DNA from: Nanobdellota archaeon | GTDB lineage: Archaea; Nanobdellota; Nanobdellia; Pacearchaeales; GW2011-AR1 | Reading direction: 5' to 3' | Assembly (NCBI GenBank): GCA_030647965.1 | Contig: JAUSIT010000016.1 | Location: 8,429 to 72,428 of the forward strand | Length of the DNA stretch: 64,000 nt | Shown: positions 2,447 through 56,347 of the stretch, piece by piece | How the letters are laid out: each line of letters opens with the position of its first letter | How positions within the stretch are numbered: position 1 is the first letter of the stretch | Program-made: the position numbers and the translations under genes | Notes under the pieces: generated by a model | The model's database searches: none | What the model was told of the DNA's origin: nothing | Seen by the model: only the letters and a program-made list of their open reading frames with translations

Positions 2447-2494
2447 AGCGATTAAGGGATTAAATAGAACTATTTAAAGGTTATTATGTGTGAA

Positions 2495-2646
2495 TACAAC
2501 TGCGTTGAAATAATTTGCTTTAACAAGCAATTATACCAAGATTGTCTAGCGACAAAAGATTTCGCTCTTGCAATAAGTACGCAATATAGAAGAGCAAAAT
2601 CTTTTGAATTGACGATTTATTAATAATAGGCACCGTTAGGTGGCTT
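2495..2646. repeat. structured intergenic repeat family, copy A (inverted orientation relative to copies B/C)
   Basis: Reverse complement matches 16300-16375 and 17960-18090 (e.g. ttgtcgctagacaatcttRgtataattgcttgttaaagcaaaYtatYtcaacgYagttg); internal hairpin 2554..2605. Confidence 0.6.
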
Positions 2647-7240: not shown

Positions 7241-7360
7241 TTAATCTAGGTTTTATTTAATTATAATATAAGACAATTTTTATTTTTTTTATTTAATATT
7301 TTTCTAGAAAAAGGGGTTAGAAAGGGTAATCGACGACTAATTGTACGATCTATTACCACA

Positions 7361-7415
7361 ATGTTTAAATAGTGTAATAAATACACTAAGTATGTGTATA
7401 ACACACACTAAGTAA
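7361..7415 (+). promoter_or_regulatory. conserved TATA + palindromic block shared with 12470..12535 and (related) 18121..18154; candidate NAD-regulon operator
   Basis: aatgtttaaatagtgtaataaatacactaagtatgtgtataacacacactaagtaa; palindromes agtgta-N5-tacact. Confidence 0.45.
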
Positions 7416-7439: not shown

Positions 7440-7618
7440 CCCAATCACAGCAAGCTGTGGGGTATTTTTTAAATGTCGAGAATCTACGGATTCTTGAGCA
7501 CACTCCAAAACAAAATTCTCCAAGGAGAATTTTTCAAAGTTTTGGATGCCTCCAAATGGGACGACGACAAATCGTAACAAGCTACGAAGTATAAGACCCA
7601 TTTAGAGTAATCAAAAAA
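7440..7618 (+). promoter_or_regulatory. long hairpin-rich leader upstream of NAD salvage operon
   Basis: Consecutive hairpins: cccaatcacagc/gctgtgggg; cgagaatc-tacg-gattcttg; aaattctcc-aa-ggagaattt; tttgga-tgcc-tccaaa. Confidence 0.4.
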
Positions 7619-8758
7619 ATGACACAAAGAAAAAATATAAACATTGCAAGAGATTACCTTGATTTTACTGATAAATATTTTCAGAGAACAAGACAAATAC
7701 TTGAAGAAGAAGGAATAAACCCTATTGTTAGATATCAATTATTTGTAAGAAAGCCGGGAATTGTAAAAGGGGTTGATGAAGCTGTTGATTTTATTAAAAG
7801 TGTTGCTGGAAACAAGGGAAAAATTTATGCTTTAAGGGATGGAAATTCTTATGATTCATGTGAACCTTTGATAAAACTAGAGGGAAGGGTACAGGATTTT
7901 GTTAATCCTGAAACAGCATATCTTGGAATTATATCAGGAGCTTTAACAGAAAACATAAATATGGTTGATGTAAGAGAAAAAGCAAGAGATATTTTCAATG
8001 CTGCACAAGGCAAACCAGTTCTTTATATGGGCGCAAGGCATTTTGATTATTCATTAGATGAAGAAATAGCAAAAATCTGTCAAGAAGAAGGATTTATTGG
8101 ATGTTCAACAGATATTGGAGCAAAAGCCTGGAATGCAAAAGGTCTAGGAACAACTCCTCATGCTTTGATTGTAAGTTATGCTGCATATATGGATGAAAAT
8201 GGAATAAAAGGAAATGCAACTGTTGAAGCAGCAAAAGGATTTGACAAATATATTGAAAAAGATGTTGCAAGAATAATGTTAATTGATACATTTAATAGAG
8301 AAATTACAGATTCAATTGAAACAGCAAAAGCAGTTCCAAGTTTAAAAGGAGTTAGAATAGATACTTGTGGAGAAAATTATACACAAGGTTCTGTTGGTTT
8401 AAAACTTCCAGAATTAGATGTTCCTGAAAAATATCTAAGAGGAAAAGGAGTTACAATTGCAGGAGTTTGGGGCTTAAGAAAAGCATTAGTTGAAAATGGT
8501 TTTGGAAATTTAGGGCAAGTAGTTTCTTCTGGATTTAATGCAGAAAAAACAAAAGCATTTTTAAAAGCAGACAAAGCATTTCAAGATATGTATGGATTTC
8601 CTTTATTTACATTATTTGGAACAGGAAGCATTGCAAATCCAACAATGGCAACCGCAGATATTGTTGCATATTTTAATGAAAAACAAGGAAAATGGAAAGA
8701 AATGCACAAAGTTGGAAGACCTGAAATTCAAACAAGCAGATTGGAGGAAATAAAATGA
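7619..8758 (+). CDS. pncB: nicotinate (or nicotinamide) phosphoribosyltransferase
   Basis: 379 aa; similarity by eye to archaeal NAPRT; first gene of NAD salvage operon with overlapping start/stops. Confidence 0.55.
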   Translation: MTQRKNINIARDYLDFTDKYFQRTRQILEEEGINPIVRYQLFVRKPGIVKGVDEAVDFIKSVAGNKGKIYALRDGNSYDSCEPLIKLEGRVQDFVNPETAYLGIISGALTENINMVDVREKARDIFNAAQGKPVLYMGARHFDYSLDEEIAKICQEEGFIGCSTDIGAKAWNAKGLGTTPHALIVSYAAYMDENGIKGNATVEAAKGFDKYIEKDVARIMLIDTFNREITDSIETAKAVPSLKGVRIDTCGENYTQGSVGLKLPELDVPEKYLRGKGVTIAGVWGLRKALVENGFGNLGQVVSSGFNAEKTKAFLKADKAFQDMYGFPLFTLFGTGSIANPTMATADIVAYFNEKQGKWKEMHKVGRPEIQTSRLEEIK

Positions 8759-9471
8759 AAGTATTTTATGATGTAGACACACAAAATGATTTTATGAATT
8801 CAAATGGAGCATTATATGTTCCTGATGCAGAGCTAATAAAACCAAATTTGATATTATTGACTGATTATGCAGAAGGCGAAAAATATAATGAAAAAAGATT
8901 TCCAATAATTGGCTCTGTTGACAGGCATTTTGGTAGTGAAGAATATAAAGAAAGAGAAGGAGAACTTGCTAAATGGGGAGGGCCTTTTCCAGACCATTGC
9001 ATGGATAAGAGTGAAGGATATAGAAAAATAGCTGAGACATTTTTATGGACAGATAATTTTAGGGGAGATGGTTGTAGTCATACTTCTCTTTATATGGAAA
9101 ATAGATTAGATTCTTTGATAGATTATAAATTAATGCAGAAAGCTCTTGAAACAATACGTTTTAAATATCAAAATTGGGGGCCATCTGCAGTTTATTTTGA
9201 AAAACAAAGTTATGATGTTTTTACAAATCCTGCAATTGATTGTTTTTTGAGATTAGCAAAAATAGATGAAGCAGTAGTTTATGGAGTTGCAACTGATTAT
9301 TGTGTTAAAGCAGCTGTTCTTGGAATGCAAGAAAGAGGAATTAAATGTTATGTTGTAGAAGATGCAATAAAAGGAGTTTTTCCAGAATCTACACAAAAAG
9401 CTCTCGAAGAAATGACTAATGCTGGAGCAGAGCTTGTAACAACACAGGATGTTTTGGAGGGAAGAATATGA
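8755..9471 (+). CDS. pncA: nicotinamidase / isochorismatase-family hydrolase
   Basis: Isochorismatase fold motif 'VYGVATDYCVKAAVLGMQERGIKCYVVEDA' with catalytic Cys. Confidence 0.65.
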   Translation: MKVFYDVDTQNDFMNSNGALYVPDAELIKPNLILLTDYAEGEKYNEKRFPIIGSVDRHFGSEEYKEREGELAKWGGPFPDHCMDKSEGYRKIAETFLWTDNFRGDGCSHTSLYMENRLDSLIDYKLMQKALETIRFKYQNWGPSAVYFEKQSYDVFTNPAIDCFLRLAKIDEAVVYGVATDYCVKAAVLGMQERGIKCYVVEDAIKGVFPESTQKALEEMTNAGAELVTTQDVLEGRI

Positions 9472-10364
9472 CTGGAATAAAACTAGCAAGAATGAATTCT
9501 GAACTTGTTGCAGATGAGATTGGGGATTTTATTATTAATGAAATAGTGCCAATTGGATATACTGGCGGGGTGATTGGTTTATCTGGTGGAGTTGATTCTA
9601 CTACTTCTGCAGCACTTGCAAAAAGAGCATTTGATAAATATAATTTAAATTCAAATAAAAAATTAGAATTAGTTGGATGCATAATGCCTTCTAATACAAA
9701 TTCAAGTGATGATGAAAGAGATGCAAGAAAAGTTGCAGATAGATTAGGAATTAGATATGAAATTATTCCTATTGAACCTGTTATTGAAGGTTTTAGAAAA
9801 GTTATTCCAAAAATAATTGAAAGTTCTTATATAAAAGGAAATTTAAAAGCAGAAATTCGTGCTACTTTACTTCATCAATTAGCAGGTTATGAAAAAAAGC
9901 TTGTTATTGGAACAGGAAATAGAGACGAAGATTTTGGAGTTGGTTATTATACTTTATTTGGAGATGGTGCTGTTCATATGAGCCCACTTGGAGGACTACC
10001 AAAAAGACTTGTTAGGCAAATGGCATGTTATTTAGGATTTTCTGATTTAGCAAATAGAATTCCAACAGCAGGACTTGAAGCAGGACAGACTGATTTTAAA
10101 GATTTAGGATATTATTATGAAACCGTTGAAGGAATTTCAGAAGGAAAATTGCAAGGATTTTCTAGATTAGAAATAATCAATGATGATTTAATTAAAGAGC
10201 TTGCAAGAAAAGATATTTCAGATTATACACAAATTTATGGAAAGAGCAAATTTTCTTCAGCAAAAGAAATAGTAAATAATGTTTTTATGAGAATGGAAAT
10301 TGCAAAAGCAAAAGGAAAAATTGTTTCACCGCCTCAACCTAAAATAAGTTTGGGGTATTTGTAA
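9468..10364 (+). CDS. nadE: NH3-dependent NAD+ synthetase
   Basis: PP-loop 'GLSGGVDSTTSAAL'. Confidence 0.75.
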   Translation: MTGIKLARMNSELVADEIGDFIINEIVPIGYTGGVIGLSGGVDSTTSAALAKRAFDKYNLNSNKKLELVGCIMPSNTNSSDDERDARKVADRLGIRYEIIPIEPVIEGFRKVIPKIIESSYIKGNLKAEIRATLLHQLAGYEKKLVIGTGNRDEDFGVGYYTLFGDGAVHMSPLGGLPKRLVRQMACYLGFSDLANRIPTAGLEAGQTDFKDLGYYYETVEGISEGKLQGFSRLEIINDDLIKELARKDISDYTQIYGKSKFSSAKEIVNNVFMRMEIAKAKGKIVSPPQPKISLGYL

Positions 10365-10365
10365 A

Positions 10366-10779
10366 ATGGAATATAAAAATCCCGGAGCAACTGTGGATTT
10401 GATTGTTGAAAAAGAAGGCAAAATACTTTTGATTAAAAGAAAAGATGAGCCATTTAAAGAAATGTATGCTCTTCCTGGCGGTTATTTAGAATGTGGAAAA
10501 GAAAATTTAAAACAAGCAGGGGCAAGAGAGTTATATGAAGAAACTAATTTAAGGACTAATTTAGAAAATTTATTTCTTGTAGGAGTTTATTCTGAACCAA
10601 ATAGAGATCCAAGAGGGCACGTAATATCTCATGCTTATTTTGTCAGAGATTACACTGGAGATGCTAAAGCAGGAGATGATGCAAAAGAGCTTGCATGGTT
10701 TGAATTAGATAAACTTCCAAAACTTGCATTTGACCATGATAAAATAATAAATGATTTTTTGAGGTTAAATGGGAGATAA
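10366..10779 (+). CDS. Nudix hydrolase (ADP-ribose pyrophosphatase-like)
   Basis: Nudix box 'GGYLECGKENLKQAGARELYEETNL'; paralogous to N-domain of 18155..18817. Confidence 0.7.
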   Translation: MEYKNPGATVDLIVEKEGKILLIKRKDEPFKEMYALPGGYLECGKENLKQAGARELYEETNLRTNLENLFLVGVYSEPNRDPRGHVISHAYFVRDYTGDAKAGDDAKELAWFELDKLPKLAFDHDKIINDFLRLNGR

Positions 10780-11221
10780 AATGAAATATATAGAATGCCC
10801 TGAAGTTTATAATAAAAAAGGAAATGAAAAATCTTTATTTATTGCTGGGGGCATAACTGAATGTGGAAACTGGCAGAATGATTTTATTGATTCACTAAAA
10901 AATGAAAATCTTATTGTATTAAATCCTAGAAGAAAAAATTTTGATATAAATGATGAAGAAATTTCTATTGCTCAAATAAAATGGGAATATGAACATTTGA
11001 AAAAAGCATCTGCAATTTCTTTTTGGTTTACATCTGAAACTCTTTGCCCAATAACATTATATGAATTAGGAAAAGTACAAGCTAGTAGAAAGCCTGTTTT
11101 TTTAGGAGTTCATCCAGCTTACAAAAGAAAATTTGATTTAGAAGTTCAGACAGGATTGATAAGACCTGAAACTAAAATTGTTTATTCACTAAATGATTTA
11201 TCTAAGCAGGTGATTGAATGA
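10769..11221 (+). CDS. nucleoside 2-deoxyribosyltransferase-like protein
   Basis: Weak resemblance ('YELGKVQASRKPVF'); placed in NAD/nucleotide cluster. Confidence 0.3.
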   Translation: MGDKMKYIECPEVYNKKGNEKSLFIAGGITECGNWQNDFIDSLKNENLIVLNPRRKNFDINDEEISIAQIKWEYEHLKKASAISFWFTSETLCPITLYELGKVQASRKPVFLGVHPAYKRKFDLEVQTGLIRPETKIVYSLNDLSKQVIE

Positions 11222-11771
11222 AGTGAAAATGACAAATAAAGAAAAATATGAAGCAACTTTGATTGGATGTGCAATTGGAGATGTTTTGGGAATGCCTATT
11301 GAAGGTTGGAAAAGAGAACAGATTAAAAAATATGTTGGAAAAGTTAGAGAGTTTATTGACCCTGTTCTTTTATATGATGAAAAAGGAGAATTGTTAAGAG
11401 AAGATGAATTTGGAAGATTAAAATATTACACAAAAAATCTTAAAAAAGGAGAGTATACTGACGATACAATTTTAACAATTGCAATTGCAGAATCAATTGC
11501 AGAAAAAAAATATCTTGATTTGGATGATAATGCAAAAAAGCAATTAGATGCATTTTTATCTGATAAGTCTCCTGATGGAAAATTCAAGAGCGGATTTGGA
11601 AAAACAACAAAAGATGGATTTTACAATTTATCAAAAGGAATTTCTCCTTTAGAATCAGGAGTTATTGGAGGACCTGGTGCTGCCCCTTCAATGAAAATTT
11701 CTCCTGTTGGATTATATATGAATGCTGTTAAAGATTATGAAAATGGATTGTTATGTCAGAAATGTGGTTAA
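11214..11771 (+). CDS. ADP-ribosylglycohydrolase family protein, N-terminal fragment (gene interrupted)
   Basis: 'LIGCAIGDVLGMPIEGW', 'YTDDTILTIAIAESI', 'GPGAAPSMKISPVGL' typical of the ARH/DraG family; ends at TAA 11769. Confidence 0.7.
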   Translation: MNEVKMTNKEKYEATLIGCAIGDVLGMPIEGWKREQIKKYVGKVREFIDPVLLYDEKGELLREDEFGRLKYYTKNLKKGEYTDDTILTIAIAESIAEKKYLDLDDNAKKQLDAFLSDKSPDGKFKSGFGKTTKDGFYNLSKGISPLESGVIGGPGAAPSMKISPVGLYMNAVKDYENGLLCQKCG

Positions 11772-11870
11772 AACCGCACCCTTTAGGGTGCTCATTTCTG
11801 AGCATCCTAAAAACAAGTGCCAATCAAACCCACACTTTTAAGTGTGGGTGGCACATTGTTTTTTTGATTT
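11762..11870 (+). other. in-frame, stop-rich, highly structured insert inside ADP-ribosylglycohydrolase gene (candidate intron / bypass element / small insertion)
   Basis: Two nested hairpin modules, each with TTTA loop: 11756-11801 (tcagaaatg...catttctga enclosing gcaccc-ttta-gggtgc) and 11814-11858 (gtgcc...ggcac enclosing acccacact-ttta-agtgtgggt); 5 in-frame stops. Confidence 0.6.
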
Positions 11871-12380
11871 TCAGAATTAATTGGAAAAATAACTCATTTA
11901 GATTCTCGTTCAATTGCAGGAGGAGTTGTTCAGGCACATTGCATTTATAGTCTGCTTCAAAATGTTTCTAAAGATGAATTTTTAGATTCTGCATCGTTTA
12001 TATGCGAGAGATTTGAAAAACCAATTTTAAAAGAATATACTCTTTCTGAAAAAGGAAATTTATTAAGCGGAATTGATTGGGTAAAAAATAATTCAGAAGT
12101 TAGTGATGAGGAAGCTTTTAAAGTTTTAAGGAATTCAAGCAATGTTTTTGAATGTCATCCATTTGCATTATTTATGTTTCAGAAATACTGGAATAATCCT
12201 ATTGAAGGCCTTATTGAAACAGTAAATTTCGGTGGGGATTGTGATACTACTGGTGCAATTTATGGTTCTCTTTGTGGTGCTAAAAATGGAATGATTTTTC
12301 CTGCTAAATGGATAGAACCTCTAAAAGACTTTGAAAAAATCAAAAAAATTGCTGATAGAATATTTGAACTTAAAGTTTAA
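11868..12380 (+). CDS. ADP-ribosylglycohydrolase family protein, C-terminal fragment (same frame as N-fragment)
   Basis: Translation from 11868: FSELIGKITHLDSRSIAGGVVQAHCIYSL...NFGGDCDTTGAIYGSLCGAKNG (conserved ARH C-terminal metal-site motif). Confidence 0.7.
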   Translation, partial: FSELIGKITHLDSRSIAGGVVQAHCIYSLLQNVSKDEFLDSASFICERFEKPILKEYTLSEKGNLLSGIDWVKNNSEVSDEEAFKVLRNSSNVFECHPFALFMFQKYWNNPIEGLIETVNFGGDCDTTGAIYGSLCGAKNGMIFPAKWIEPLKDFEKIKKIADRIFELKV

Positions 12381-12469
12381 TTTATTAATTTGTTATTTTC
12401 TCGTCGGTTTTTATAATTTCTATTTTTCCGCAATTTTCTTAAAATATTATTATCTAATTCTATACCATA

Positions 12470-12535
12470 ATGTTTAAATAGTGTATAACATACAATAACT
12501 ATGTGTATAAGTTACACTAAGGTAAGGTAATTTCT
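12470..12535 (+). promoter_or_regulatory. conserved TATA + palindromic block (second copy), upstream of NMNAT-like gene
   Basis: taatgtttaaatagtgtataacatacaataactatgtgtataagttacactaaggtaagg; outer palindrome tagtgtaac...gttacacta. Confidence 0.45.
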
Positions 12536-12570
12536 ACACAAATCAGATAAATTAGACAGAAAACAAAAAA

Positions 12571-13341
12571 ATGAAGCTTGGAAAAGTCGGATTAATAGGA
12601 AGGTTTAAGCCAGTACATAATGGAGCTGCACTTATGCTTGAAACAGTATGTGAAAAAGCAGAAAGTGTGATAATTGGAATAGGCAGCTCAAATAAGTACA
12701 ATGCACGAAATCCTTTTCTGCCTGAAGAATCAGAAGAAATGGTAAGATTAGTTCTTGAAAAATTTTCAAATCAAAAAAATCCTTTAGTTTATTCTGGGAA
12801 TTTTTTGGATGAAGGAAATTCGAGTGAATTTCCTGCCCTGAAAATTAAACAAATTTTCAGTGATCTGAAATTAAAACCAGTAAGCCTACAACCAAATTAT
12901 AAAGAATTGAATTTTAATTTCAGACATTATGAAATCTTGCATGTGCCTGATTTTTCACACATACTCCAATATAGCAACGGAGAAAAATGGAAGGAATATG
13001 TCTGTGGGCAATTTGGAGAGCTGGATAATTTTGTAACTTCAAATGATTTTGTAAAAGAATTACTAAAAGACAGATATAATATAATTCATCCTTCTGAATT
13101 AATTCCAAAAGAAAAGCAAATTTTACTGAAAGCAACAGAGGTAAGGCTTGAAATGGCCAGATTTGGAAATTGGAAAAAATTAGTTCCTGAAAAAATTTCT
13201 GAATATCTTGAAAAAAATAATCTTGTATCAAGATTTCAAAATGAATTTGGATTGCAAACTCTAGCTTTGCTGTCTGAAAATCTTAATTTAAATGAAACAG
13301 AAGATGCTGCAGAAGAAAAATTGCATGCACAGGAGTTATAA
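12571..13341 (+). CDS. nicotinamide-nucleotide adenylyltransferase-like protein (archaeal NadM family) with divergent HxGH motif and C-terminal extension
   Basis: 'LIGRFKPVHNGAAL' (HKGH->HNGA), 'IIGIGSSNKY..RNPF', 'VYSGNFL', 'YSNGEKWKEYV' match archaeal NMNAT. Confidence 0.55.
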   Translation: MKLGKVGLIGRFKPVHNGAALMLETVCEKAESVIIGIGSSNKYNARNPFLPEESEEMVRLVLEKFSNQKNPLVYSGNFLDEGNSSEFPALKIKQIFSDLKLKPVSLQPNYKELNFNFRHYEILHVPDFSHILQYSNGEKWKEYVCGQFGELDNFVTSNDFVKELLKDRYNIIHPSELIPKEKQILLKATEVRLEMARFGNWKKLVPEKISEYLEKNNLVSRFQNEFGLQTLALLSENLNLNETEDAAEEKLHAQEL

Positions 13342-16184: not shown

Positions 16185-16375
16185 ACGGGAAAAAATTTTG
16201 CTCTTGTATCTTTATGTTATATATTATAAGAGCAAAATTTTTTGTTAGACAAGAAACAGGGTTAAGGCTTGTTCAACATTATTATCTCATCAGGTATTAA
16301 TTAATGGTGATTGTCGCTAGACAATCTTAGTATAATTGCTTGTTAAAGCAAACTATCTCAACGTAGTTGCATATC
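16185..16375. repeat. structured intergenic repeat family, copy B (with partial internal duplication)
   Basis: hairpin aaaattttgctctt-N22-aagagcaaaatttt; shared 3' block ttgtcgctagacaatcttagtataattgcttgttaaagcaaactatctcaacgtagttgcatat. Confidence 0.6.
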
Positions 16376-16437
16376 AAGTTTAGTAATTTACCTAACTCTC
16401 GCATAAAATTCATAAACACAAAAAACATTAGTATAAC

Positions 16438-17010: not shown

Positions 17011-17879
17011 AAATACAAACATTTACAATTGTTGCAGGAACTGCAGCATGCAATGCAAAATGCCCATATTGTGTTTCAAAAATGACTCCTCATCAAGGAG
17101 TTGGATTTGAAAAGCCTGTTGTAAACTGGCTTAATTTTGACAAAGCATGCAGGCTTGCACAAATCAGCAATGTCAGCACTGTTTTAATTACTGGAAAGGG
17201 TGAGCCAACATTATACCCTGAACAAATTACAGAATTTCTTAAAAGATTAAAAAAATTTGATTTTCCTTTAATTGAAATTCAGACAAATGCTCTTTCTTTT
17301 GGCAAAGATTTCAAAAAATATGAAAAACATCTTAAACAATGGAGAGAATTGGGATTAAACACAATTGCAATTTCTTTTGTTAGTGATAAAAAAGAAGAAA
17401 ATAAAAAAATTTATACTCCTGATTCAGATTATATTGATTTAGAAGATACTATAAAAAAATTACATAATCTTGGATTTTCTATCAGATTAAGCTGCATCAT
17501 GCTAAAGGGAGTTATGGATAGTGTTGAAAAAGTAAAAAAATTAGCTGAAAATGCAAAAAAATGGAATGTTGAACAACTAACTGTTCGTTCTGTAAAAGCA
17601 TCTGATTATTCTGAAGATAGTGATGTTTACAAATATGCAAAAGAACACGAACTTAGTGATGGACAAATTTTAGATATAGGAAAATTTCTTGAGAAAAATG
17701 CAAAAAAATTAATGACACTAGACCACGGAGCAGTTGTATATGATTTAGACGGACAAAATATATGCATAACAGATTGTTTAACTATAAAATCAAATACAGA
17801 AGAATTAAGACAGTTAATATTTTTCCCAGATGGACATTTAAGATATGATTGGAGATATGCTGGCGCAGTGATTATATAA
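17007..17879 (+). CDS. radical SAM domain protein
   Basis: 'CNAKCPYC' CxxxCxxC near N-terminus, 'TGKGEPTL'; start overlaps nadD stop. Confidence 0.55.
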   Translation: MKIQTFTIVAGTAACNAKCPYCVSKMTPHQGVGFEKPVVNWLNFDKACRLAQISNVSTVLITGKGEPTLYPEQITEFLKRLKKFDFPLIEIQTNALSFGKDFKKYEKHLKQWRELGLNTIAISFVSDKKEENKKIYTPDSDYIDLEDTIKKLHNLGFSIRLSCIMLKGVMDSVEKVKKLAENAKKWNVEQLTVRSVKASDYSEDSDVYKYAKEHELSDGQILDIGKFLEKNAKKLMTLDHGAVVYDLDGQNICITDCLTIKSNTEELRQLIFFPDGHLRYDWRYAGAVII

Positions 17880-17934
17880 TACAAAACTATAAAATTTACA
17901 CTTGCAAATTATTGCACTTCGTTAAAATACTAGG

Positions 17935-18090
17935 TCGCTTAGTGGCTCCTATCTATTAATTAATAAATCGTGATTGAAAAAGTTTCGCCCTTATATTCTT
18001 AGGTTATTTATTGTAAGAGTAAAACTTTTTTGTTAGACAATTATATTATCCTTGTTCAGTGAACAAACTATTTCAACGCAGTTGCATATG
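17935..18090. repeat. structured intergenic repeat family, copy C
   Basis: taattaataaatcgtgattgaaaaag + hairpin + ttgttagacaattatattatccttgttcagtgaacaaactatttcaacgcagttgcatat. Confidence 0.6.
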
Positions 18091-21761: not shown

Positions 21762-21868
21762 GGGCTTATAGTTCAATGGATAGAATGCCAGGCTTCGGTG
21801 GGCTTACTTTATTTAGTTAAAGAAGATGGAGAAACCTGTTGATCGAGGTTCGAATCCTCGTAGGCCCA
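21762..21868 (+). tRNA. intron-containing tRNA, anticodon read as TCG (Arg), about 36-nt intron 3' of position 37
   Basis: Acceptor GGGCTTA/TAGGCCC, D-arm GTTC..GAAT, anticodon stem CCAGG, loop CTTCGG, T-arm CGAGG-TTCGAAT-CCTCG; intron GAAG can pair with loop CTTC; no encoded CCA. Confidence 0.6.
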
Positions 21869-36388: not shown

Positions 36389-37552
36389 ATGAAATCCTCA
36401 AATGCATTTACAATAACTGCTAAAGACAAAAAAACAAAAGCAAGAGCAGGAATTTTGCATACAAGAAAAGGAAAAATTGAAACACCTTTTTTTATGCCTG
36501 TTGCAACTAAAACTGCTGTTAAGCATATATCTCCTGAAGACTTACATGAAATGAAAGCAAAAGCAATAATCTCAAATGCATTAATTTTATTTTTAAGGCC
36601 TGGTTCTGATATAATTAAAAAAATGGGGGGAATTGGAAAATTTATGAATTACAAAGGAATTAATGTAACTGATTCTGGGGGTTTTCAAATGTATTCTGAA
36701 AAATTTTTAATTAAAACAGAAGAAAATGGAGTTTGGTTTAATAGTCCTTTTGACGGTACAAAGCATTTTATAACTCCTGAAAAAAATATGCAAATTCAGT
36801 TAGATTTGGGAGGGGATGTTGCAATGTGCTTAGATAATATGCCTTTAATGGAAAATACAAAGGGAGAAATTGAAGAAGCAATAAGAAAAACATTTAATTG
36901 GGCTCAAAAATGCAAAAAAGAACATGATAAACTTCAAAAAAATATTCCTAAAGGAAAAAAACAATTGCTTTTTGGGATTTGCCAGGGTGGAATTTATGAA
37001 GATTTAAGAAAAACTTCTGCAACAGAAATGTCTCAGATTGATTTTGATGGATTTTCTATTGGAGGACTTGCACTTGGAGAGGAAAAAAAAGATGAATATA
37101 AAATGATTGAAATACAAAAACAAATACTTCCTGAAAATAAGCCATGTTATTTAATGGGTGCAGGAAATCCTATTGAACTTTTAGAAGCAATTTCAAGAGG
37201 AATTGATATGTTTGATTCAAGATTTCCAACTCAAAATGCAAGAAGAGGAACTATTTTTACAAGCAAAGGAAAATTAAAAATTTTAAGAAAAGAGTATAAA
37301 ACAGATAAAAATCCATTAGATAAAGGGTGCAAGTGTTTTGTATGCAAAAATCATTCAAGAGCATATATTAGGCATTTATTATTAAGAGAAGAAGCAACAG
37401 GAATGAGATTAGCAACATTTCATAATCTATATTTCTTGCAAAACTTAATGGAAAAGTCGAGAGCTGAAATTAAAAAGGGGAAGTTTTTGGAATTCAAGAA
37501 TAAAATGAAGAAGATTTATCAAAAAAATAATATACCTTCGCCTGCTTTATAG
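36389..37552 (+). CDS. tgt: tRNA-guanine transglycosylase
   Basis: 'TPFFMPVATKTAVK', Zn site 'CKCFVCKNH'; no PUA domain. Confidence 0.8.
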   Translation: MKSSNAFTITAKDKKTKARAGILHTRKGKIETPFFMPVATKTAVKHISPEDLHEMKAKAIISNALILFLRPGSDIIKKMGGIGKFMNYKGINVTDSGGFQMYSEKFLIKTEENGVWFNSPFDGTKHFITPEKNMQIQLDLGGDVAMCLDNMPLMENTKGEIEEAIRKTFNWAQKCKKEHDKLQKNIPKGKKQLLFGICQGGIYEDLRKTSATEMSQIDFDGFSIGGLALGEEKKDEYKMIEIQKQILPENKPCYLMGAGNPIELLEAISRGIDMFDSRFPTQNARRGTIFTSKGKLKILRKEYKTDKNPLDKGCKCFVCKNHSRAYIRHLLLREEATGMRLATFHNLYFLQNLMEKSRAEIKKGKFLEFKNKMKKIYQKNNIPSPAL

Positions 37553-37658
37553 AATTATATTATTTTTAGGATGCCCAAAACTTAATAAGTTAAATTAGCA
37601 TGTATTATAAATAAAACTCCAAGTTTATGGACATGAATCAAAAGGCCTTAGATAATAA

Positions 37659-38411
37659 ATGATAAAAGAGAATATTCTTAAAATAAAATCTGAAATTCCT
37701 GAAAATATTAAAATTATTGCTGCAACTAAAACAAGAAGCATAGATGAAATAAAAGAAGCTCTTTATTCTGTGATAAAAATAATAGGGGAAAATTATGTTC
37801 AAGAAGCAGAAGCAAAGTTTAATTTTTTGAAAGAATTGAAAAAAACTGCTGATGTTCGAAATGTAGTTCAAATTGCTTCCCAAGAAGAGATACATTTCGG
37901 AGCATCCCAAAAACCTAATAAACCGGAGGGTTTTTCTGATTTTGAAATTCATTTAATAGGTCATTTACAAAGAAACAAAACAAAAAAAGCTGTTGAAATT
38001 TTTGATTTAATCCAGACAGTTGATTCTATGGAAATTGCAAGAGAAATTGATAAGAGATGTTCTGAAATAAATAAGATAATGCCTGTTTTAATTGAAATAA
38101 ATATTGCCAAAGAAGAAAATAAAACCGGCTGTATGCCTGAAAATGTTTTTAAATTAGCAGAAGAAATTTCCAAGCTTAAAAATATTAAATTAAGAGGAAT
38201 TATGGCAATAGGGCCAAATTTTGATGACAAAGAAAAACTAAGACCTTATTTTAATGAAGCTAAAGAGATATTTGAAGAGTTAAAAAAAACAAATAAAGAA
38301 ATTGAAATTTTATCAATAGGAATGTCTGATTCTTGCAAGATTGCAATTGAATGCGGTTCTAATATGGTTAGAATTGGAACTTCTATTTTTGGGGAAAGGA
38401 TCCCTAAATAA
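37659..38411 (+). CDS. YggS/PROSC-family PLP-binding protein
   Basis: 'KIIAATKTRS', 'HLIGHLQRNKTKKAV'. Confidence 0.65.
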   Translation: MIKENILKIKSEIPENIKIIAATKTRSIDEIKEALYSVIKIIGENYVQEAEAKFNFLKELKKTADVRNVVQIASQEEIHFGASQKPNKPEGFSDFEIHLIGHLQRNKTKKAVEIFDLIQTVDSMEIAREIDKRCSEINKIMPVLIEINIAKEENKTGCMPENVFKLAEEISKLKNIKLRGIMAIGPNFDDKEKLRPYFNEAKEIFEELKKTNKEIEILSIGMSDSCKIAIECGSNMVRIGTSIFGERIPK

Positions 38412-39694: not shown

Positions 39695-39774
39695 TTTAAC
39701 CTCCTTTTATCTTTTATATACTAGAAAAAAAGATTATTTAAAGGTTTTTGAATTATTAATTAAACTATCTAACT

Positions 39775-39935
39775 TAGCATGCAACTCTGTTGAGATAGTT
39801 TGTTCAAATGAACAATGATAATATAATTGCCTGCGGCAATTGACGATTAATTAATAACTAATCAGGAGCTGCAAAAAGTTTTACTCTTACAATAGGTAAC
39901 TCAAGATAGAAGAGTAAAACTTTTTCTAGGCGACT
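39775..39935. repeat. structured intergenic repeat family, copy D (modules rearranged)
   Basis: hairpin aaaagttttactctt-N21-aagagtaaaactttt; reverse complement carries ttgttcatttgaacaaactatctcaacagagttgcatgct. Confidence 0.55.
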
Positions 39936-40067
39936 TCTTATAAGAACAAAATGCAATAATTGATAAATGTAAATTTTACAGATTTACTTGATATAAATAG
40001 ACAAGTATGGTTCAATCTTGATTGAAGTCATAACTGGATTTATAAATAAAAATTTGCTTAATAATCT

Positions 40068-48371: not shown

Positions 48372-48390
48372 CTATTCAACATCTTCGCCA

Positions 48391-48426
48391 AGAGAGGCAT
48401 TATATTTCTATTATATAGTGCCTCTT
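48391..48426. repeat. 37-nt palindromic hairpin repeat, copy 1
   Basis: agagaggcattatatttctattatatagtgcctctt. Confidence 0.7.
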
Positions 48427-48481
48427 AAATTAAAAAAGCATTGAGCAATTAAACAAACAACTTTTTTCCAGGAGGCATGTC

Positions 48482-48844
48482 ATGTTAATCTTTGGAATTC
48501 TTTTGGCACTCGTTATCCTCGGGGTAGTAGTGTATCGTTTTGCACCAAAGGATGTTGGGAGCACTATCATGGTCCTCTCTTTGGGCATGATTCTTGTAAC
48601 TATGTTAACTATCCCACTCGCCAGAAATCAGTATATCCAAGAAATTTATGGTTTCAGGGATTTTAGCGAATTCTGCAAAGAAACTGGGGCCATAGGGTTT
48701 AAGCAGTCAGAAAATTATGACGAGTTTATGCAACAAGTCAAAGAAAAAAATATCTGGCTTGTCAGAACCCAACATTTTAATTCTGGCATCTGGTTTGATC
48801 TCTGGATTCCGGATGAAGTTGATTTGCTTGAACAGATTAAGTAA
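48482..48844 (+). CDS. membrane protein
   Basis: SD ccaggaggcatgtcatg. Confidence 0.45.
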   Translation: MLIFGILLALVILGVVVYRFAPKDVGSTIMVLSLGMILVTMLTIPLARNQYIQEIYGFRDFSEFCKETGAIGFKQSENYDEFMQQVKEKNIWLVRTQHFNSGIWFDLWIPDEVDLLEQIK

Positions 48845-49131
48845 CTGAAAACAATTTCACAAACAAAAACTTTTCACAATCTAAAACAAAAAAAGGAGTA
48901 GGCCATGAAAGCAATGAAATATGTTTTTATTATGGCCAGCGTTATTATCATTATTGCCGGAGCAATAGTGATGGTTATTCATCATCTCAAAAGCATAGCA
49001 GACAATCTTAACTGGATGCTCTTTGGCGATGGTGCTGGCATGAATGTTGTTCGCAAATAAATCGTTTACAAAAAACAATAATATACTAAACAAAAAAAAC
49101 TTTTCACAAAAACAATTTTCGGAGGTGTGTC

Positions 49132-49566
49132 ATGTCAAGAATGTTGGTTCTTATTATGGTTGCGCTTTTTGCGACCTGTGTTTTTAACGGCTGTGGAGAA
49201 TCTAAATATATTTACGGAGTTGTTTTAAATGAATATGGGACCATTGTCAAAAGGCAAAACTTTATTGAACGTTCTGAAGGAGCATTATTTGGAAACGATT
49301 CAATAAAGCTAAATGATCCTACCTATGTAATTCAATTTCAGGTGGTTTCTGTAAGAAGTTCTAAAAAAATATATGATTCCGGCCCTTACCTTGGAAAAAT
49401 TTATACTTTTCAAATTATGGGAGGGAGATATAATAATTTAGAAGCATTAAATATTGCAATACACAAAGGAACAAAAATCAGAATTCCCCAGAGCGAATTT
49501 AATTTTTATTTAAATGGTAATGTAGGCAAAATATTTGATTCAAATGTTAGTGTATTAGATGAATAA
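49132..49566 (+). CDS. lipoprotein
   Basis: 'LFATCVFNGCGES' lipobox-like; SD ggaggtg. Confidence 0.5.
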   Translation: MSRMLVLIMVALFATCVFNGCGESKYIYGVVLNEYGTIVKRQNFIERSEGALFGNDSIKLNDPTYVIQFQVVSVRSSKKIYDSGPYLGKIYTFQIMGGRYNNLEALNIAIHKGTKIRIPQSEFNFYLNGNVGKIFDSNVSVLDE

Positions 49567-49835
49567 TCCAATCTGAAAAAGAAAGGAGGTGAGAATAATG
49601 TTGCTAGGAACAATACTACAAATCGGAGGAGCAATAATTATGATTGTTAGTGTAATTGGTTTGAGCATTACACTATACAATAACCATAAATCAAACAAGC
49701 ATCCTGAAAGGAGGTGATCTAATCTATCTGTTTTTATTTTACAAATCTTAAAACGAAAGGAGATAAACAACAAACAAATGATTTACCTGATTCATCACTA
49801 TTTTCAAACTTCAATCATCAACAAGGAGAAATTCT

Positions 49836-50075
49836 GTGAAAGCTCTTATGATTGCTTTGCCTATCTGGGCGTGGATTATTGTTACGCTCATCGCTGTTTT
49901 TATTCTCTGGAACATTCTCGCCATCATCGGTGCGATCATCGGCCTGTTGTTCTGGGTCATCGGTTCGCTCATCCATTCCATCATCACTCTCGGCATTATC
50001 GGCCTGATTATTTGGGGCGGATACAAAGTCTGGAACTGGGTGAAAAACACCATCGGCAAGGAAACCATTTCGTAA
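49836..50075 (+). CDS. small membrane protein (GTG start)
   Basis: SD caaggagaaattctGTG; three hydrophobic helices. Confidence 0.45.
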   Translation: MKALMIALPIWAWIIVTLIAVFILWNILAIIGAIIGLLFWVIGSLIHSIITLGIIGLIIWGGYKVWNWVKNTIGKETIS

Positions 50076-50353
50076 TCTTCACACCGCCGCGAGAGAGCCT
50101 GATGATTAATTCTGAGCATTGGGCTCTCTTGCTTTTTTCAAAAAAGAAAAAGAAACGAGCAGTACATTTACAAAAAACAAAAGAGGCAATAAAATGTTAA
50201 GCTTGAAGAAAAAGATTGAAGCCAGAATCAGACTCCGTGTTTTTCTGGTAGCAAAATATGGAAAGCGCTGGTACAAACGCCCGCAATTTTTAAGATTAAT
50301 TAATAAGCGGACCAAGTGAAAACAATTTTACAATTTGAAGGGAGGTGAAAAAA

Positions 50354-50731
50354 ATGTCAAAGATGAATATCAGTACATCTCTACTGCTAATCCTTGCCAC
50401 AATGACTTTAATTCTTCTTGGTGCCGGATTTATTGAGCTGATAAAAATCGCAATATTATTAACTATAACCATTGCTTTTGTTCATGGCATAGTTAATTTT
50501 AAAATAAATTTCGGCAAAAAAGCATTGATCACATCGATTAGCAATAAAGTTACCATCTGTTTAAGTTTGGCAATACTATTGTTTTTCTTTGGAGGGCCAT
50601 TAGTGTTGCCTGTTAAATTATTTATATTAGTCTTTTTTGGAGAATTTGCAATATATGGAATCTGGATTTATGTAAAAAATAAATTCTTCAACAAGACTAT
50701 CCCGCCGACAACTCCTCCTGCATCAGCGTAA
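50354..50731 (+). CDS. membrane protein
   Basis: SD gggaggtgaaaaaaATG (track start 50345 is GTG within SD). Confidence 0.45.
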   Translation: MSKMNISTSLLLILATMTLILLGAGFIELIKIAILLTITIAFVHGIVNFKINFGKKALITSISNKVTICLSLAILLFFFGGPLVLPVKLFILVFFGEFAIYGIWIYVKNKFFNKTIPPTTPPASA

Positions 50732-50742
50732 CATCTTCGTCA

Positions 50743-50779
50743 AGAGAGGCATTATAGTTCTATTATATAGTGCCTCTCT
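50743..50779. repeat. 37-nt palindromic hairpin repeat, copy 2
   Basis: agagaggcattatagttctattatatagtgcctctct. Confidence 0.7.
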
Positions 50780-50956
50780 AAATTGAAAACAATTTAACTT
50801 TTGAAGGGAGGTGAACAATATGCGACGATGTTTCTACTCCAACCATAGAATGAGATAACCTACCTCAGGCGGTCCCCCGACATAATCCAAAGAGATTACA
50901 AGTCGGGACGCGTTACAAAAAAAGTTTTACAAAAATCGTTCTTGTTATGATTTTCA

Positions 50957-51000
50957 AAAGAGGGTTTGATATCTGAAATATTGAGCCCTCTTTAATTTTT
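50957..51000 (+). terminator. Rho-independent terminator (8-bp GC stem + T-run)
   Basis: aaagaggg...ccctcttt aattttt. Confidence 0.5.
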
Positions 51001-51027
51001 GAAAATAATTATTTGTTTTAATATAGA
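50999..51027 (+). promoter_or_regulatory. sigma70-like promoter TTGAAA-N17-TATAGA
   Basis: ttgaaaataattatttgttttaatataga; near-identical copy at 55023. Confidence 0.55.
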
Positions 51028-51084
51028 AAAAAATTAGCAGTGAGCAAACAATTTTTATAGGAGAAAAAAGAAAAGAGGTGAAAA

Positions 51085-51354
51085 ATGAAAACAATTTTTG
51101 TAGTACTTCTCCTCATTGCAGCAATTATTTTTCTAATAGTTGATTGCAATGAAAAAAGAAAAATCAGAAAGATTCAAAGGAGAAAGATCATGACCCAAAC
51201 CAAAGACGACCTCAGCATGACATCGTTTGGCATTCCTTACAGTCAACTCGATGATGAAAGGAGAAAACACATCGATCTGCTTTTTGCTCGACAGATTTAT
51301 CAAGAAGTCAAACCCCCACGAATTAACCTTAAGAAAGAAAGAGGGATGCAATGA
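51085..51354 (+). CDS. small membrane-anchored protein
   Basis: SD agaggtgaaaaATG. Confidence 0.45.
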   Translation: MKTIFVVLLLIAAIIFLIVDCNEKRKIRKIQRRKIMTQTKDDLSMTSFGIPYSQLDDERRKHIDLLFARQIYQEVKPPRINLKKERGMQ

Positions 51355-52079
51355 TAACTCGCAAAGTACAGATTATCGTCGCGCTGTTTTCTATTCTCTT
51401 TGTTTTGACTGCCCTTTCCATTGTTGGCCCTTGCAGCAAGGCTAACGGTGAAAACGCCAAGACTGAAACTCCGATTACTGCAAGCTGGGACAACACCTAT
51501 TCCAGCAAGTATGTATTCTGGGGAATCCAATTCAGCAACAAGGATGTCTATCAATCGCTCATCACTATTAACAAAGGGCATTCCACACTCTTTGTTTTCA
51601 GCAACAGGGATTTCGAAACCTCGACGTGGAATGAACACGATGTGTTTTTCGATTACACAACTCCTATCAACAAAATGGTAAATATGTCAGCGGGCTACAA
51701 CTATTACAACTGCCGGCTCGGCGACTGGGAAAGCTATAACGAAATTTACATTGGCGCCAGTTTCAATACTTTCCTCTCGCCGGCAATCAGCTATCACAAT
51801 ATTTTCGGCTTTGAAAACGGAAATTACTTCGAGGCCAGTGTATCCAAAAGCTTCCAGATCAACGACAAGATTACTCTTTTATCTTCTGGAAAACTTGGAT
51901 ACAACGACAAAGCATTCAGAACAGCCACGGATTTTAGCCATACTGAATGGGGAATATCTGCACCGATTACATATCTTCCCCATTTCATAATCTCACCGTT
52001 TGCAAAGTATTCATTTGCCCTGGCTGATGATCTCAAGAATGTTTTCTACGGCGGTGCGACTGCAAGTTACAAGTTCTGA
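51351..52079 (+). CDS. secreted beta-barrel-like protein ending in aromatic residue (OMP-like)
   Basis: Signal anchor, alternating amphipathic strands, C-terminal ...ASYKF. Confidence 0.4.
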   Translation: MITRKVQIIVALFSILFVLTALSIVGPCSKANGENAKTETPITASWDNTYSSKYVFWGIQFSNKDVYQSLITINKGHSTLFVFSNRDFETSTWNEHDVFFDYTTPINKMVNMSAGYNYYNCRLGDWESYNEIYIGASFNTFLSPAISYHNIFGFENGNYFEASVSKSFQINDKITLLSSGKLGYNDKAFRTATDFSHTEWGISAPITYLPHFIISPFAKYSFALADDLKNVFYGGATASYKF

Positions 52080-52096
52080 TTCTTTTACGGCGGACA

Positions 52097-52133
52097 AGAG
52101 AGGCATTATAGTTCTATTATATAGTGCCTCTCT
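52097..52133. repeat. 37-nt palindromic hairpin repeat, copy 3
   Basis: agagaggcattatagttctattatatagtgcctctct. Confidence 0.7.
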
Positions 52134-52198
52134 GAATTTTAGCAAACAGCAAAGAGCAAACAACATCACAAACAAACTTTTTCACGAGGAGAATCATC

Positions 52199-52684
52199 AT
52201 GTTTGGAAAATTCACATCTTTTGTGATCGCACTTATAATCACTTCCATTGTGGCGATCGGGATTTATCACAACAAAATCAATTATAATACTATTTTCAAC
52301 GAAGAAGAAATTTCGTCAAGCATTGAAGAGCCCACAAACGAATTAATTACTTTTAATATTCCTGTAATATTTGCTGATGGGGCTCAAGGACAAGTCAAAG
52401 GAATATTTTATTATCATTATTCAAATTTATTTGATTCATCAGAAATTAAAGTAATTAAAGATCGTAAAATGTTCCTCCTGAATGAAATCCACAAGGCATT
52501 ATGGATTATTGCAGTAAATTTTACTGCACCAATAACTCTTGATGAAAAAAAGAAATATGTTTCAGAGGTAATTTCTACAATCAACGAAAATCCAAGATTC
52601 AAAGATTCTAATCTCAAAATCTGGTTTATTGATTTTGGTCAAATTAAGCCCGGAGTTTTTGATCAAGGTCTTTTAATTCAGTAA
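52199..52684 (+). CDS. membrane-anchored hypothetical protein
   Basis: SD cacgaggagaatcatcATG. Confidence 0.45.
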   Translation: MFGKFTSFVIALIITSIVAIGIYHNKINYNTIFNEEEISSSIEEPTNELITFNIPVIFADGAQGQVKGIFYYHYSNLFDSSEIKVIKDRKMFLLNEIHKALWIIAVNFTAPITLDEKKKYVSEVISTINENPRFKDSNLKIWFIDFGQIKPGVFDQGLLIQ

Positions 52685-52768
52685 CCTTCCAGCGTTCAGA
52701 ATTGAGCAAAAACTTTTCTAAGAAAGGGGAACAATATGAAAATCCAAAAAAGAAGGGAGGTGAAAAAC

Positions 52769-53251
52769 ATGAAAAGATTTTTCTCATTCGCAACAATCTT
52801 GATAACATTGTTGCTTAGTTTGATTACGGGCTGTAGTGAAAATAATGAATCAAATTATAATAACTTCAGCTCAGATTCAGACTCAACAAAAACAGGGACC
52901 TCAATAGATTCGCTCAAAACCCCTGTTTCAATACTGACTGGAAAGATTGTCCAAATTCAAACAGGCAGTTTAATTGTCTATACAGGAAATGGATATGTCT
53001 TCCATGAATTCAAATATGTAATGGTCGAAGGAACTGATGGGGGATTTTATATTCTTATTTATCCCTATGCTGTGAAAGCAATCTGGGAAAAAGAAGCAAC
53101 TATAAAATTCAGGCCGTTACATAACGGGCAAATTGATTCAAACACCTTTATCAATCTTTTTCTATTCTCCCGCAATGATGCTTCATTCATTAATCATCTG
53201 CCAATCGAAGCAGATGGCATCATTATCAACAACGGAATTCAATACAAGTAA
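52769..53251 (+). CDS. lipoprotein
   Basis: 'LLSLITGCSENNE'; preceded by conserved 35-nt leader at 52733. Confidence 0.5.
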   Translation: MKRFFSFATILITLLLSLITGCSENNESNYNNFSSDSDSTKTGTSIDSLKTPVSILTGKIVQIQTGSLIVYTGNGYVFHEFKYVMVEGTDGGFYILIYPYAVKAIWEKEATIKFRPLHNGQIDSNTFINLFLFSRNDASFINHLPIEADGIIINNGIQYK

Positions 53252-53347
53252 CAGATTTTACAATCAACAGATTTTACAATCAACAGATTTTAAATTGGAG
53301 AAGGAGGAATTTATGAAAATCCAAAAACGAAGGGAGGTGAACAAATT

Positions 53348-53584
53348 ATGTGGATACTCCTCGAATGGTGTTTGGTAATCACAGTCGCAGTGTTTATCAT
53401 AAGCCAGATAATCCTCCCGCCCTTTATTAACAAGCGTTTTTTCTGGATTCTTCGGAAAAAAGAGAAAAAGCTCGATGCTGTTGGAAACGAGCTGATTGAT
53501 GCGCAGGTTGATTTAGAAGTGGCTGAAACTCGTGCGGCAGTCAAGAAAGTTCTGGATAAAACCAGTAAATTGAATCACAAGTAA
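53348..53584 (+). CDS. small membrane protein
   Basis: preceded by conserved leader at 53313. Confidence 0.45.
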   Translation: MWILLEWCLVITVAVFIISQIILPPFINKRFFWILRKKEKKLDAVGNELIDAQVDLEVAETRAAVKKVLDKTSKLNHK

Positions 53585-53643
53585 CAAAAATCTATTCATT
53601 CTTTTTCATTCACTTTTTTTCATATCTATCAAGGAGCTTTTCA

Positions 53644-54966: not shown

Positions 54967-54982
54967 CACTCTGCATCGTCAA

Positions 54983-55019
54983 AGAGAGGCATTATAGTTC
55001 TATTATATAGTGCCTCTCT
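54983..55019. repeat. 37-nt palindromic hairpin repeat, copy 4
   Basis: agagaggcattatagttctattatatagtgcctctct. Confidence 0.7.
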
Positions 55020-55022
55020 GAT

Positions 55023-55051
55023 TTGAAAATAATTATTTGTTTTAATATAAA
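55023..55051 (+). promoter_or_regulatory. sigma70-like promoter TTGAAA-N17-TATAAA
   Basis: ttgaaaataattatttgttttaatataaa. Confidence 0.55.
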
Positions 55052-55106
55052 TAGAATTTAGCAATGAGCAAAAACTTTTAAAAACAATCAAAAAACGAGG
55101 CGTGTC

Positions 55107-55634: not shown

Positions 55635-55772
55635 AAAATATGCTAGGTATAATGGTTCCAATATGCATTCTTCTTTGGATTCTCGCAGCGTTGCTGATAC
55701 TACTATGACGCTAACCCCTCAAGAAAGGAGAAAATAGTTATGAAAATCCGAAAAAGGGGGGAGGTGAATAAT

Positions 55773-55964
55773 ATGAATCTGGACGTAAACTCATGTCTTA
55801 TCGGAGTAATAATAACAGTAGCAGTTTACACTATATTGATTATCTTTTTTGCCAAGGATAATATCAACAATAACATTATCAAATTCAAAACCAAATGTCC
55901 GAGTTGTGGTCATGAAATCACCGAAGACAGAAAGGTAGAAGTGGGATTAAAAATTTCTGAATAA
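55773..55964 (+). CDS. small membrane-anchored zinc-ribbon protein
   Basis: 'CPSCGHEI'; preceded by conserved leader at 55739. Confidence 0.4.
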   Translation: MNLDVNSCLIGVIITVAVYTILIIFFAKDNINNNIIKFKTKCPSCGHEITEDRKVEVGLKISE

Positions 55965-56316: not shown

Positions 56317-56347
56317 CACAACAATCTAAAACGTGAAAGGAAAGAAC

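Follow-up and report, generated by a model that had tools for sequence, protein, structure and literature searches.

The question raised by this locus is how the ADP-ribosylglycohydrolase (ARH) gene of a Nanobdellota archaeon comes to lie in a single reading frame as two parts separated by a run of stop codons. The gene is found in a stretch of 64,000 nucleotides (assembly GCA_030647965.1, contig JAUSIT010000016.1, positions 8,429 to 72,428), here called the window, whose own coordinates are used throughout. An earlier note on this DNA described the gene as divided by an in-frame, stop-rich insert able to form hairpins, and this description was confirmed by matches to the Pfam family PF03747 and by reading of frame 1. 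Four explanations had been offered for the split: an archaeal intron, a programmed translational bypass, the insertion of a structured repeat or miniature inverted-repeat transposable element (MITE) with a recent pseudogene as the result, and an assembly artefact. The third of these was supported by the present analysis and the other three were not. As judged from the sequence, a small non-autonomous mobile repeat has probably inserted recently into the ARH gene and inactivated it.

Read in frame 1, the interval 11214-12380 encodes the N-terminal part of ARH, then G*NRTL*GAHF*AS*KQVPIKPTLLSVGGTLFF* (asterisks, stops), and then the C-terminal part. The five stops that had been reported between the two halves are TAA, TAG, TGA, TAA and TGA. 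The insert is present as claimed, but gap-free alignment with 18 homologues gave it a size of 114 nt, or 38 codons, in place of the 111 nt first reported. Likewise, the fragment 11214-11771 is ARH as stated, but its terminal CQKCG* derives from the insert; the real coding end of the N-terminal part is ...GGA TTG TTA T, and GTG 11223 or TTG 11214 are possible alternative start codons. After in-silico removal of the 114 nt the junction consists of ...GGATTGTTAT followed directly by TTTCAGAA..., and an uninterrupted (empty) site would read GGATTGTTATTTTCAGAATTAATTGG. At this junction the joined protein has the sequence ...ENGLL-FSELIGK... (also written ...ENGLLFSELIGK). All 18 homologues show ...GL-x-[FY][AS]E... 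without a gap, and GL-L-FSE is regained in the joined protein, in agreement with the prediction that removal of the insert would give the spacing typical of the family.

Alignment of the joined protein to PF03747, proposed earlier as a check, gave a full-domain match covering positions 2-281 of 287 (E = 2e-53, 182 bits with a cut-off of 26.2); the separate halves scored 95 bits (N-terminal, positions 2-136) and 80 bits (C-terminal, positions 147-281). A protein-database search returned 404 homologues, the closest of which were 56-61% identical, full-length and unbroken and, where named, belonged to Nanoarchaeota or Woesearchaeota. The split ARH retains 76 of the 77 columns that are invariant among the 18 homologues, including DDT and GGDCDTTGA. 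In a leave-one-out test, the intact homologues showed 0-4 breaks at invariant columns, and the split ARH falls within the same range. No ATG, GTG or TTG is present in frame in the C-terminal half upstream of 12174, according to the list of open reading frames (ORFs), and the possibility that ARH is a split gene producing two polypeptides was rejected for lack of a start codon before that position.

Two nested hairpin modules with TTTA loops were found in the insert where the earlier note had placed them. The inner hairpin of module 1, P1a (11776-11791), is GCACCC-TTTA-GGGTGC, and that of module 2, P2a (11829-11848), is CCCACACT-TTTA-AGTGTGGG. The long outer stem of module 2, P2, is formed by pairing of ATC at 11804-06 with GAT at 11866-68 and of AAAAACAAGTGCC at 11809-21 with GGCACATTGTTTTT at 11850-63. 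The folding energy of the region 11730-11900 was -58.4 kcal/mol, compared with -32.9 +/- 3.6 for shuffled sequences (z = -7.1). The element may equally be placed at 11753-11866, because AT is found both at 11753-54 and at 11867-68, which allows a slide of two bases. A TCAGAA direct repeat at both ends was considered as a target duplication and rejected, because its spacing of 115 nt would leave a frameshift in ARH.

The insert belongs to a large family of repeats. No second near-identical copy of it was found in the window. A 26-mer of module 2 was present at 12 sites in five Woesearchaeota/Nanoarchaeota metagenome-assembled genomes (MAGs), with up to five sites per MAG and several at contig ends. 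A scan of metagenomes with the 21-mer of the linker retrieved at least 120 contigs, from groundwater, sediments and lakes. Among the matches listed there were 129 in total, of which 84 had both ends and 80 lay in distinct contexts, and the copies ranged in length from 63 to 240 nt with a mode of 129. All complete copies carry the linker GA[GT]CATCC[CT]AAAAACAAGTGC. Two viral contigs (L014, L015) were rejected as carriers, their matches being chance ones within GC-rich coding DNA. A search of Rfam with the window at the gathering score matched only a tRNA, and at E <= 10 around the insert nothing was returned beyond chance microRNA and small nucleolar RNA matches. A literature search for the repeat family found only general surveys of MITEs and work on haloarchaeal palindromic elements, and the two-hairpin family appears to be undescribed so far.

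A family alignment and a covariance model, R1, were built from 43 copies. The layout that emerged from this alignment is AT, the target side, followed by G-P1[...P1a...]P1'-GC-P2[...P2a...]P2', in which P1 begins at the second base of the element and P2 finishes at its final base (ATC...GAT). The two inner hairpins resemble each other, with TTTA loops and like stems CCACA...TGTGG (AAACCACA-N-TTTA-N-TGTGG). Both match (A)AACC-ACA-N3-4-TTTA-N3-4-TGT-GG, and they covary independently. RNAalifold predicted 41 pairs for the 43 copies, 22 of them with compensatory changes, and such changes were seen in 6 of 9 pairs of P1, in all 7 pairs of P1a and in 8 of 9 pairs of P2a. On the named structure, 96.9% of the alignment cells were paired, compared with 84.1% after shuffling and 38-52% when the partners were slid; cells with a double change numbered 205 against 55 expected, and none of 500 shuffles attained the observed values. 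P2 is invariant, but its 5' strand lay in the search pattern, so that its invariance is informative for the 3' strand alone.

Variation among the copies extends to whole hairpins. Minimal copies (L101, L107, L126) are without the inner hairpins, long ones (L010, L011, L111, L119) have additional hairpins or nested insertions, and one copy (L061) has a core deletion that fuses P1a to P2a. In another (L029), a 1.6-kb DDE-type insertion sequence (IS; 8027-9640) lies within the P2a loop. This IS has CAGGCTGT inverted repeats and encodes a DDE-type transposase of 497 aa.

The ends of the copies are uniform: the 5' end is GTC[AC], and the 3' end is TTGAT in 74 of 80 copies. No terminal inverted repeats were found, the ends GTCAGAAAT... 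and ...TTGTTTTTTTGAT not being complementary. Over 76 copies, the 5' flank has T at -7 in 84%, T at -4 in 93%, A at -2 in 96% and T at -1 in 100%, with a T background of 35%, and the ARH site TTGTTAT agrees with this T-rich, AT-ending flank. When GTC...TGAT was removed in silico, the placement was intergenic for all 9 complete copies in genomes and for about 75 of the 80 metagenome contexts. The copies showed no preferred orientation toward adjacent genes, which counted against a terminator role for the repeat. Clustering of 1304 ORFs from the loci produced housekeeping families only, with no recurrent neighbour gene or transposase. The coding potential of the element was also considered and rejected by inspection, since the ATG-frame ORF at 11753-11950 is not conserved and early stops occur in other copies.

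ARH is not the only gene that contains a copy. Others were found in a PIN_2 gene (L053; sense, three stops), an RNA-ligase gene (antisense, two stops), a membrane protein gene (antisense, 130 nt, frameshift) and the locus L069 (sense, read-through open), and exact removal of GTC...TGAT restores all five genes, ARH included. The antisense copies within genes include L079 and L103. Diverged copies were detected in the window itself. That in the NMNAT gene (12571-13341) accounts for about 52-56 extra residues relative to NMNATs of solved structure, between the equivalents of residues 61 and 63 of MJ0541. That in the YggS/PLP-homeostasis gene (37659-38411) accounts for about 29-31 extra residues, the alignment with YggS chains of the Protein Data Bank has its gap exactly there, and the element frame used (VRN...) is shared with the open copy of L069. 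The tRNA-guanine transglycosylase gene (36389-37552) takes its stop and the 11 codons before it from a third. Judging from their frames, the old copies in needed genes (NMNAT, YggS) are presumably kept open and translated.

Such copies recall the Rickettsia palindromic elements (RPEs), selfish repeats found in frame within protein-coding genes (PMC10969869). Shared with RPEs are the landing of structured repeats of about 100-150 bp in housekeeping genes and the persistence of open copies as extra peptide (here NMNAT, YggS and L069), and the NMNAT copy in particular looks like an RPE-type translated insertion, as far as its sequence tells. Unlike RPEs, the present family is mostly intergenic and its hosts are archaeal, and the ARH copy, with its five stops, disrupts the protein instead of extending it. 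The nicotinamidase ORF (8755-9471; isochorismatase fold) is also longer than PncA of P. horikoshii by about 40 residues (aa 91-147); this segment reached only 11 bits with R1, and no family motifs were visible in it.

The sequence of events that best fits these observations would be as follows. A member of the two-hairpin family of DPANN archaea would have entered ARH directly after TTGTTAT, adding 114 nt with five in-frame stops. Translation would end after residue ~180 of ARH plus five foreign residues, giving a truncated product with the C-terminus ...DYENGLLCQKCG, and the C-terminal half, without a start of its own, would leave the gene inactive. That 114 is a multiple of three would be a coincidence. 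The element is entered in the frame TGT CAG AAA, in which even canonical copies close with TTT TTT TGA, and disruption was therefore unavoidable. In the sense orientation, the long P2 hairpin followed by the T7 run (near 11860-11866) is a plausible archaeal termination signal. The insertion is taken to be recent because the copy is near the family consensus and both halves of ARH are undecayed.

As to how the repeat moves, the family might be carried as single-stranded DNA by an HUH/Y1 transposase of the IS200/IS605 type ('peel-and-paste') supplied in trans. By analogy this mechanism is a serious possibility, although it falls a little short of being probable. If it applies, the element would resemble the palindrome-associated transposable elements (PATEs) and its insertion would be precisely reversible. 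PATEs, described in Haloquadratum walsbyi, are non-autonomous derivatives of IS605/IS1341-type elements (PMC3119063). According to that description, the likeness extends to the absence of terminal inverted repeats, two similar palindromes near the termini, a short conserved oligonucleotide at the 3' terminus, a short, specific 5' target similar in sequence to the 3' terminus of the element, multiple copies too short to encode a transposase (here 63-240 nt), core deletions between the palindromes (here L061) and the presence of other small elements inside the palindromes (here the hairpin loop of L029). Unlike PATEs, the present elements have their hairpins enclosed by the longer outer stems P1 and P2, their hosts are DPANN archaea and not haloarchaea, they have no sequence similarity to known elements, their 3' module shows unusual conservation among many organisms, and no IS605-type parent sharing their ends was found in the copy loci and window ORFs scanned. 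A parent was sought through orphan right ends and this was rejected, as only truncated, core-deleted or secondarily interrupted copies were obtained and the IS in L029 is unrelated. With classical DDE-derived MITEs the family shares its short, non-autonomous, multi-copy and mainly intergenic character and the occasional inactivation of a gene; it differs from them in having no terminal inverted repeats and at most a 2-bp AT repeat, which is not a defined target-site duplication.

Five copies (L020, L119, L132, L111 and L122) were observed to have, within a hairpin loop, an additional small hairpin element (...CTCAGGAATTTACATTCCTGA...). By analogy with the SMR-A elements that target PATEs in Haloquadratum, this suggests that a second mini-repeat may target these palindromes.

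Several points weigh against the recent inactivation of ARH by a mobile repeat. An undecayed ARH is equally expected of a gene that is still functional. The protein database contains no intact ARH allele representing the empty site, its top match being 60-61% identical. No TnpA or TnpB with matching ends was seen in 838 kb of copy loci. In place of an IS605-type target, the AT shared by the two ends could result from a 2-bp target duplication or from an A|T split as in insertion of the Y2/IS91/Helitron type. Finally, the 3' module is so highly conserved in diverse organisms that some constraint besides selfish spread may act on it.

Another proposal is that the family consists primarily of functional small-RNA genes, either an orphan guide scaffold resembling omega-RNA, with the 3' flank as guide, or a portable terminator or regulator, the insertion into ARH being collateral. 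Linker and P2 are near invariant among organisms that share only ~60% identity in their proteins, the hairpin followed by the T7 run is terminator-like, and P2 abuts the 3' boundary of the element, as omega-RNA scaffolds abut the boundary in IS200/IS605 right ends. However, the orientation toward neighbouring genes is unbiased, no TnpB or IscB gene was found near the copies when the loci and the ORFs of the window were scanned, there was no Rfam match, and the invariance of the P2 5' strand was partly set by the search pattern. This role is considered unlikely as the main one; as an additional property of the family it is conceivable but unsupported. The ten ORFs of the window within the size range of TnpB (324-481 aa) were housekeeping or without a Pfam match, and none was a transposase or TnpB. 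By inspection, the insert was also rejected as a C/D-box or H/ACA RNA, since it is without a C box and without a two-sided pseudouridylation pocket.

A different view is that the insert is an intervening sequence cut from the mRNA, as a relaxed or non-canonical intron handled by the tRNA splicing endonuclease and RtcB or through other RNA processing, and that ARH is still made. Archaeal bulge-helix-bulge (BHB) introns do occur in protein genes, for example in cbf5 of Crenarchaeota. Here the length of the insert is in frame, excision restores the family spacing exactly, ARH is undecayed, the element is strongly structured, and the organism splices BHB introns, as it has an intron-bearing tRNA-Arg (21762-21868); like BHB introns in protein genes, the insert is short and structured, interrupts an archaeal ORF and has a host with the splicing machinery. 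For the BHB motif itself, the definition applied was a 4-bp helix between two bulges of 3 nt, with both splice sites falling on the exon-intron junctions. Every combination of positions 11730-11789 with 11840-11899 was scanned; no usable in-frame motif emerged, and the BHB intron put forward in the earlier note was not upheld. There is no BHB at any in-frame junction near 11753/11867; at 11753/11867 itself the central helix would be TTGT with TTTT, and the best in-frame candidate, 11753/11858, leaves a TGA stop in place. The ends of the element are closed by independent hairpins and not by exon-intron pairing. Unlike BHB introns, moreover, the element is repeated at dispersed sites, occurs outside genes and may have either orientation. 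The search for further copies, suggested in the earlier note, returned many in related genomes, mostly intergenic, which counts against an intron; more than 90% of the copies are intergenic, and those within genes are also antisense. The older copies in genes stay open in the host frame, which argues against removal from RNA, since their openness would then be unnecessary. An intron or other removal from the mRNA is accordingly rated very unlikely.

A broader version of the same idea would be a new kind of archaeal intervening sequence, a mobile two-hairpin module that, once inserted into a gene in the sense orientation, is excised from RNA or passed over by ribosomes, with ARH and the PIN protein of L053 both functional. 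Such a module would account for the undecayed halves of ARH and for a 3' module so strictly conserved, but it is highly improbable.

In a programmed translational bypass of the T4 gene 60 type or of the mitochondrial 'byp' type, ribosomes would leave the message upstream of the insert and resume downstream of it. As in these systems, the ORF at the ARH locus belongs to an AT-rich genome and is intact except for an insert that contains stops and forms hairpins. Byps are GC-rich, hairpin-forming inserts in AT-rich hosts, and the insert in ARH, comparatively GC-rich and hairpin-forming in an AT-rich host, has a superficial likeness to them. Moreover, GGT-TAA (11766-11771) lies in a small 6-bp hairpin, UGUGGU-UAAA-ACCGCA. 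On the other hand, the junction defined by homology lies five codons upstream of this stop, and the GGT triplets downstream precede a TGA in every usable frame. The sole matched pair, TTA 11751 with TTA 11877, skips 126 nt and loses FSEL including its conserved Glu. Stop-bearing canonical copies also break other genes in the antisense orientation. The 114-nt gap is more than twice that of T4 gene 60. Unlike T4 gene 60 and the byps, therefore, ARH has no matched take-off and landing pair that yields a conserved, family-typical product, and the bypass suggested earlier is scarcely credible. That the repeat was misjoined into ARH during assembly is extremely improbable as well: repeats do break assemblies, and both Logan contigs of the independently assembled run SRR13727527 stop within the element, but they carry the left junction (to 11778) and the right junction (from 11842) separately, the site fits the family target, and excision restores the reading frame exactly.

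If the repeat insertion is accepted, the split ARH is an insertional knock-out and not an intron or recoding site, and would be annotated as a disrupted gene. For ARH this result is deflationary and the event an ordinary one. Of more use is its by-product, a large, sequence-conserved, structured and mobile repeat family in DPANN archaea that apparently had not been described and that fragments assemblies and inactivates genes. In at least three cases (NMNAT, YggS and L069) the repeat appears to persist as a translated insert within core enzymes, an archaeal parallel to the Rickettsia elements. Should the family prove to be of the IS200/IS605 type, this would suggest active single-strand transposition, and perhaps elements that bear guide RNAs, in these reduced genomes. 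The positions of the ARH parts, the element and the other copies in the window are collected in Table 1.

Table 1. Positions in the window of the two parts of ARH, the inserted element with its components, and the diverged relatives of the repeat (R1, covariance model of the family).
Feature	Position	Strand	Basis or remark
N-terminal ARH part	11229..11754	+	PF03747 profile positions 2-136; alignment to 18 intact homologues
Insertion target TTGTTAT	11748..11754	+	Fits family flank: T-rich, ending (T/A)AT directly 5' of element
Inserted element, 114 nt (GTCAG...TTTTTTTGAT)	11755..11868	+	R1, 107 bits, E = 3e-19; excision gives GL-L-FSE
Module 1	11756..11801	+	Outer stem P1 (11756-11764 with 11793-11801) around hairpin P1a
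Linker motif GAGCATCCTAAAAACAAGTGC	11800..11820	+	Family-invariant; present in at least 120 metagenome contigs
Module 2	11804..11868	+	Long stem P2 around hairpin P2a; T7 run at end
C-terminal ARH part (TT TCA GAA ... GGDCDTTGA ... stop)	11869..12380	+	PF03747 profile positions 147-281
Diverged copy in NMNAT gene, 156 nt	12770..12925	-	R1, 42 bits, E = 3e-6; antisense, in frame, stop-free
Diverged copy in YggS/PLP-homeostasis gene, 87 nt	37854..37940	+	R1, 37 bits; sense, in frame, stop-free
Diverged copy at end of tRNA-guanine transglycosylase gene	37518..37634	-	R1, 33.5 bits
Weak degenerate relative directly upstream of NAPRT start	7503..7608	-	R1, 20 bits, E = 0.009-0.06; own-strand 5' neighbour TTTTTTTGAT

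The split ARH belongs to a compact NAD-salvage cluster (7619-13341) that comprises NAPRT, nicotinamidase, NAD synthetase, Nudix, a nucleoside-deoxyribosyltransferase-like gene, ARH and NMNAT. Judged from these neighbours, the position of ARH suggests that it acts on ADP-ribose or on metabolites derived from NAD. A 59-nt direct repeat (85% identical) with a TTTAAATA box was observed at 7354-7412 and 12463-12521, upstream of the block NAPRT-PncA-NadE-Nudix-... and of the NMNAT gene respectively, and may be a common promoter or operator of the NAD-salvage genes.

The window has archaeal traits, namely the TTTAAATA promoter boxes, the genes for GatD/GatE and prolyl-tRNA synthetase, and the intron-bearing tRNA-Arg(UCG). 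The last of these lies on the + strand with an intron of ~36 nt after position 37 and scored 54 bits with Rfam; with ARAGORN in bacterial mode, the whole window gave no tRNA at all. A second, unrelated family of upstream sequences (...GTCGCTAGACAATCTTAGTATAATTGCTTGTTAAAGCAAACTATCTCAACG...) was noted at 2494-2610 (-), 16286-16395 (+), 39756-39996 (-) and 17872-18030, often with a long hairpin (AAAAGTTTTACTCTT...AAGAGTAAAACTTTT) and in each case immediately upstream of a TTTAAATA box and a gene start. In the region 48378-63349, five copies of a 38-nt hairpin with a perfect stem (AAGAGAGGCATTATAGTTCTATTATATAGTGCCTCTCT) lie between small genes with strong GGAGGTGA ribosome-binding sites, and these are a separate repeat family within an apparent cluster of paralogous genes.

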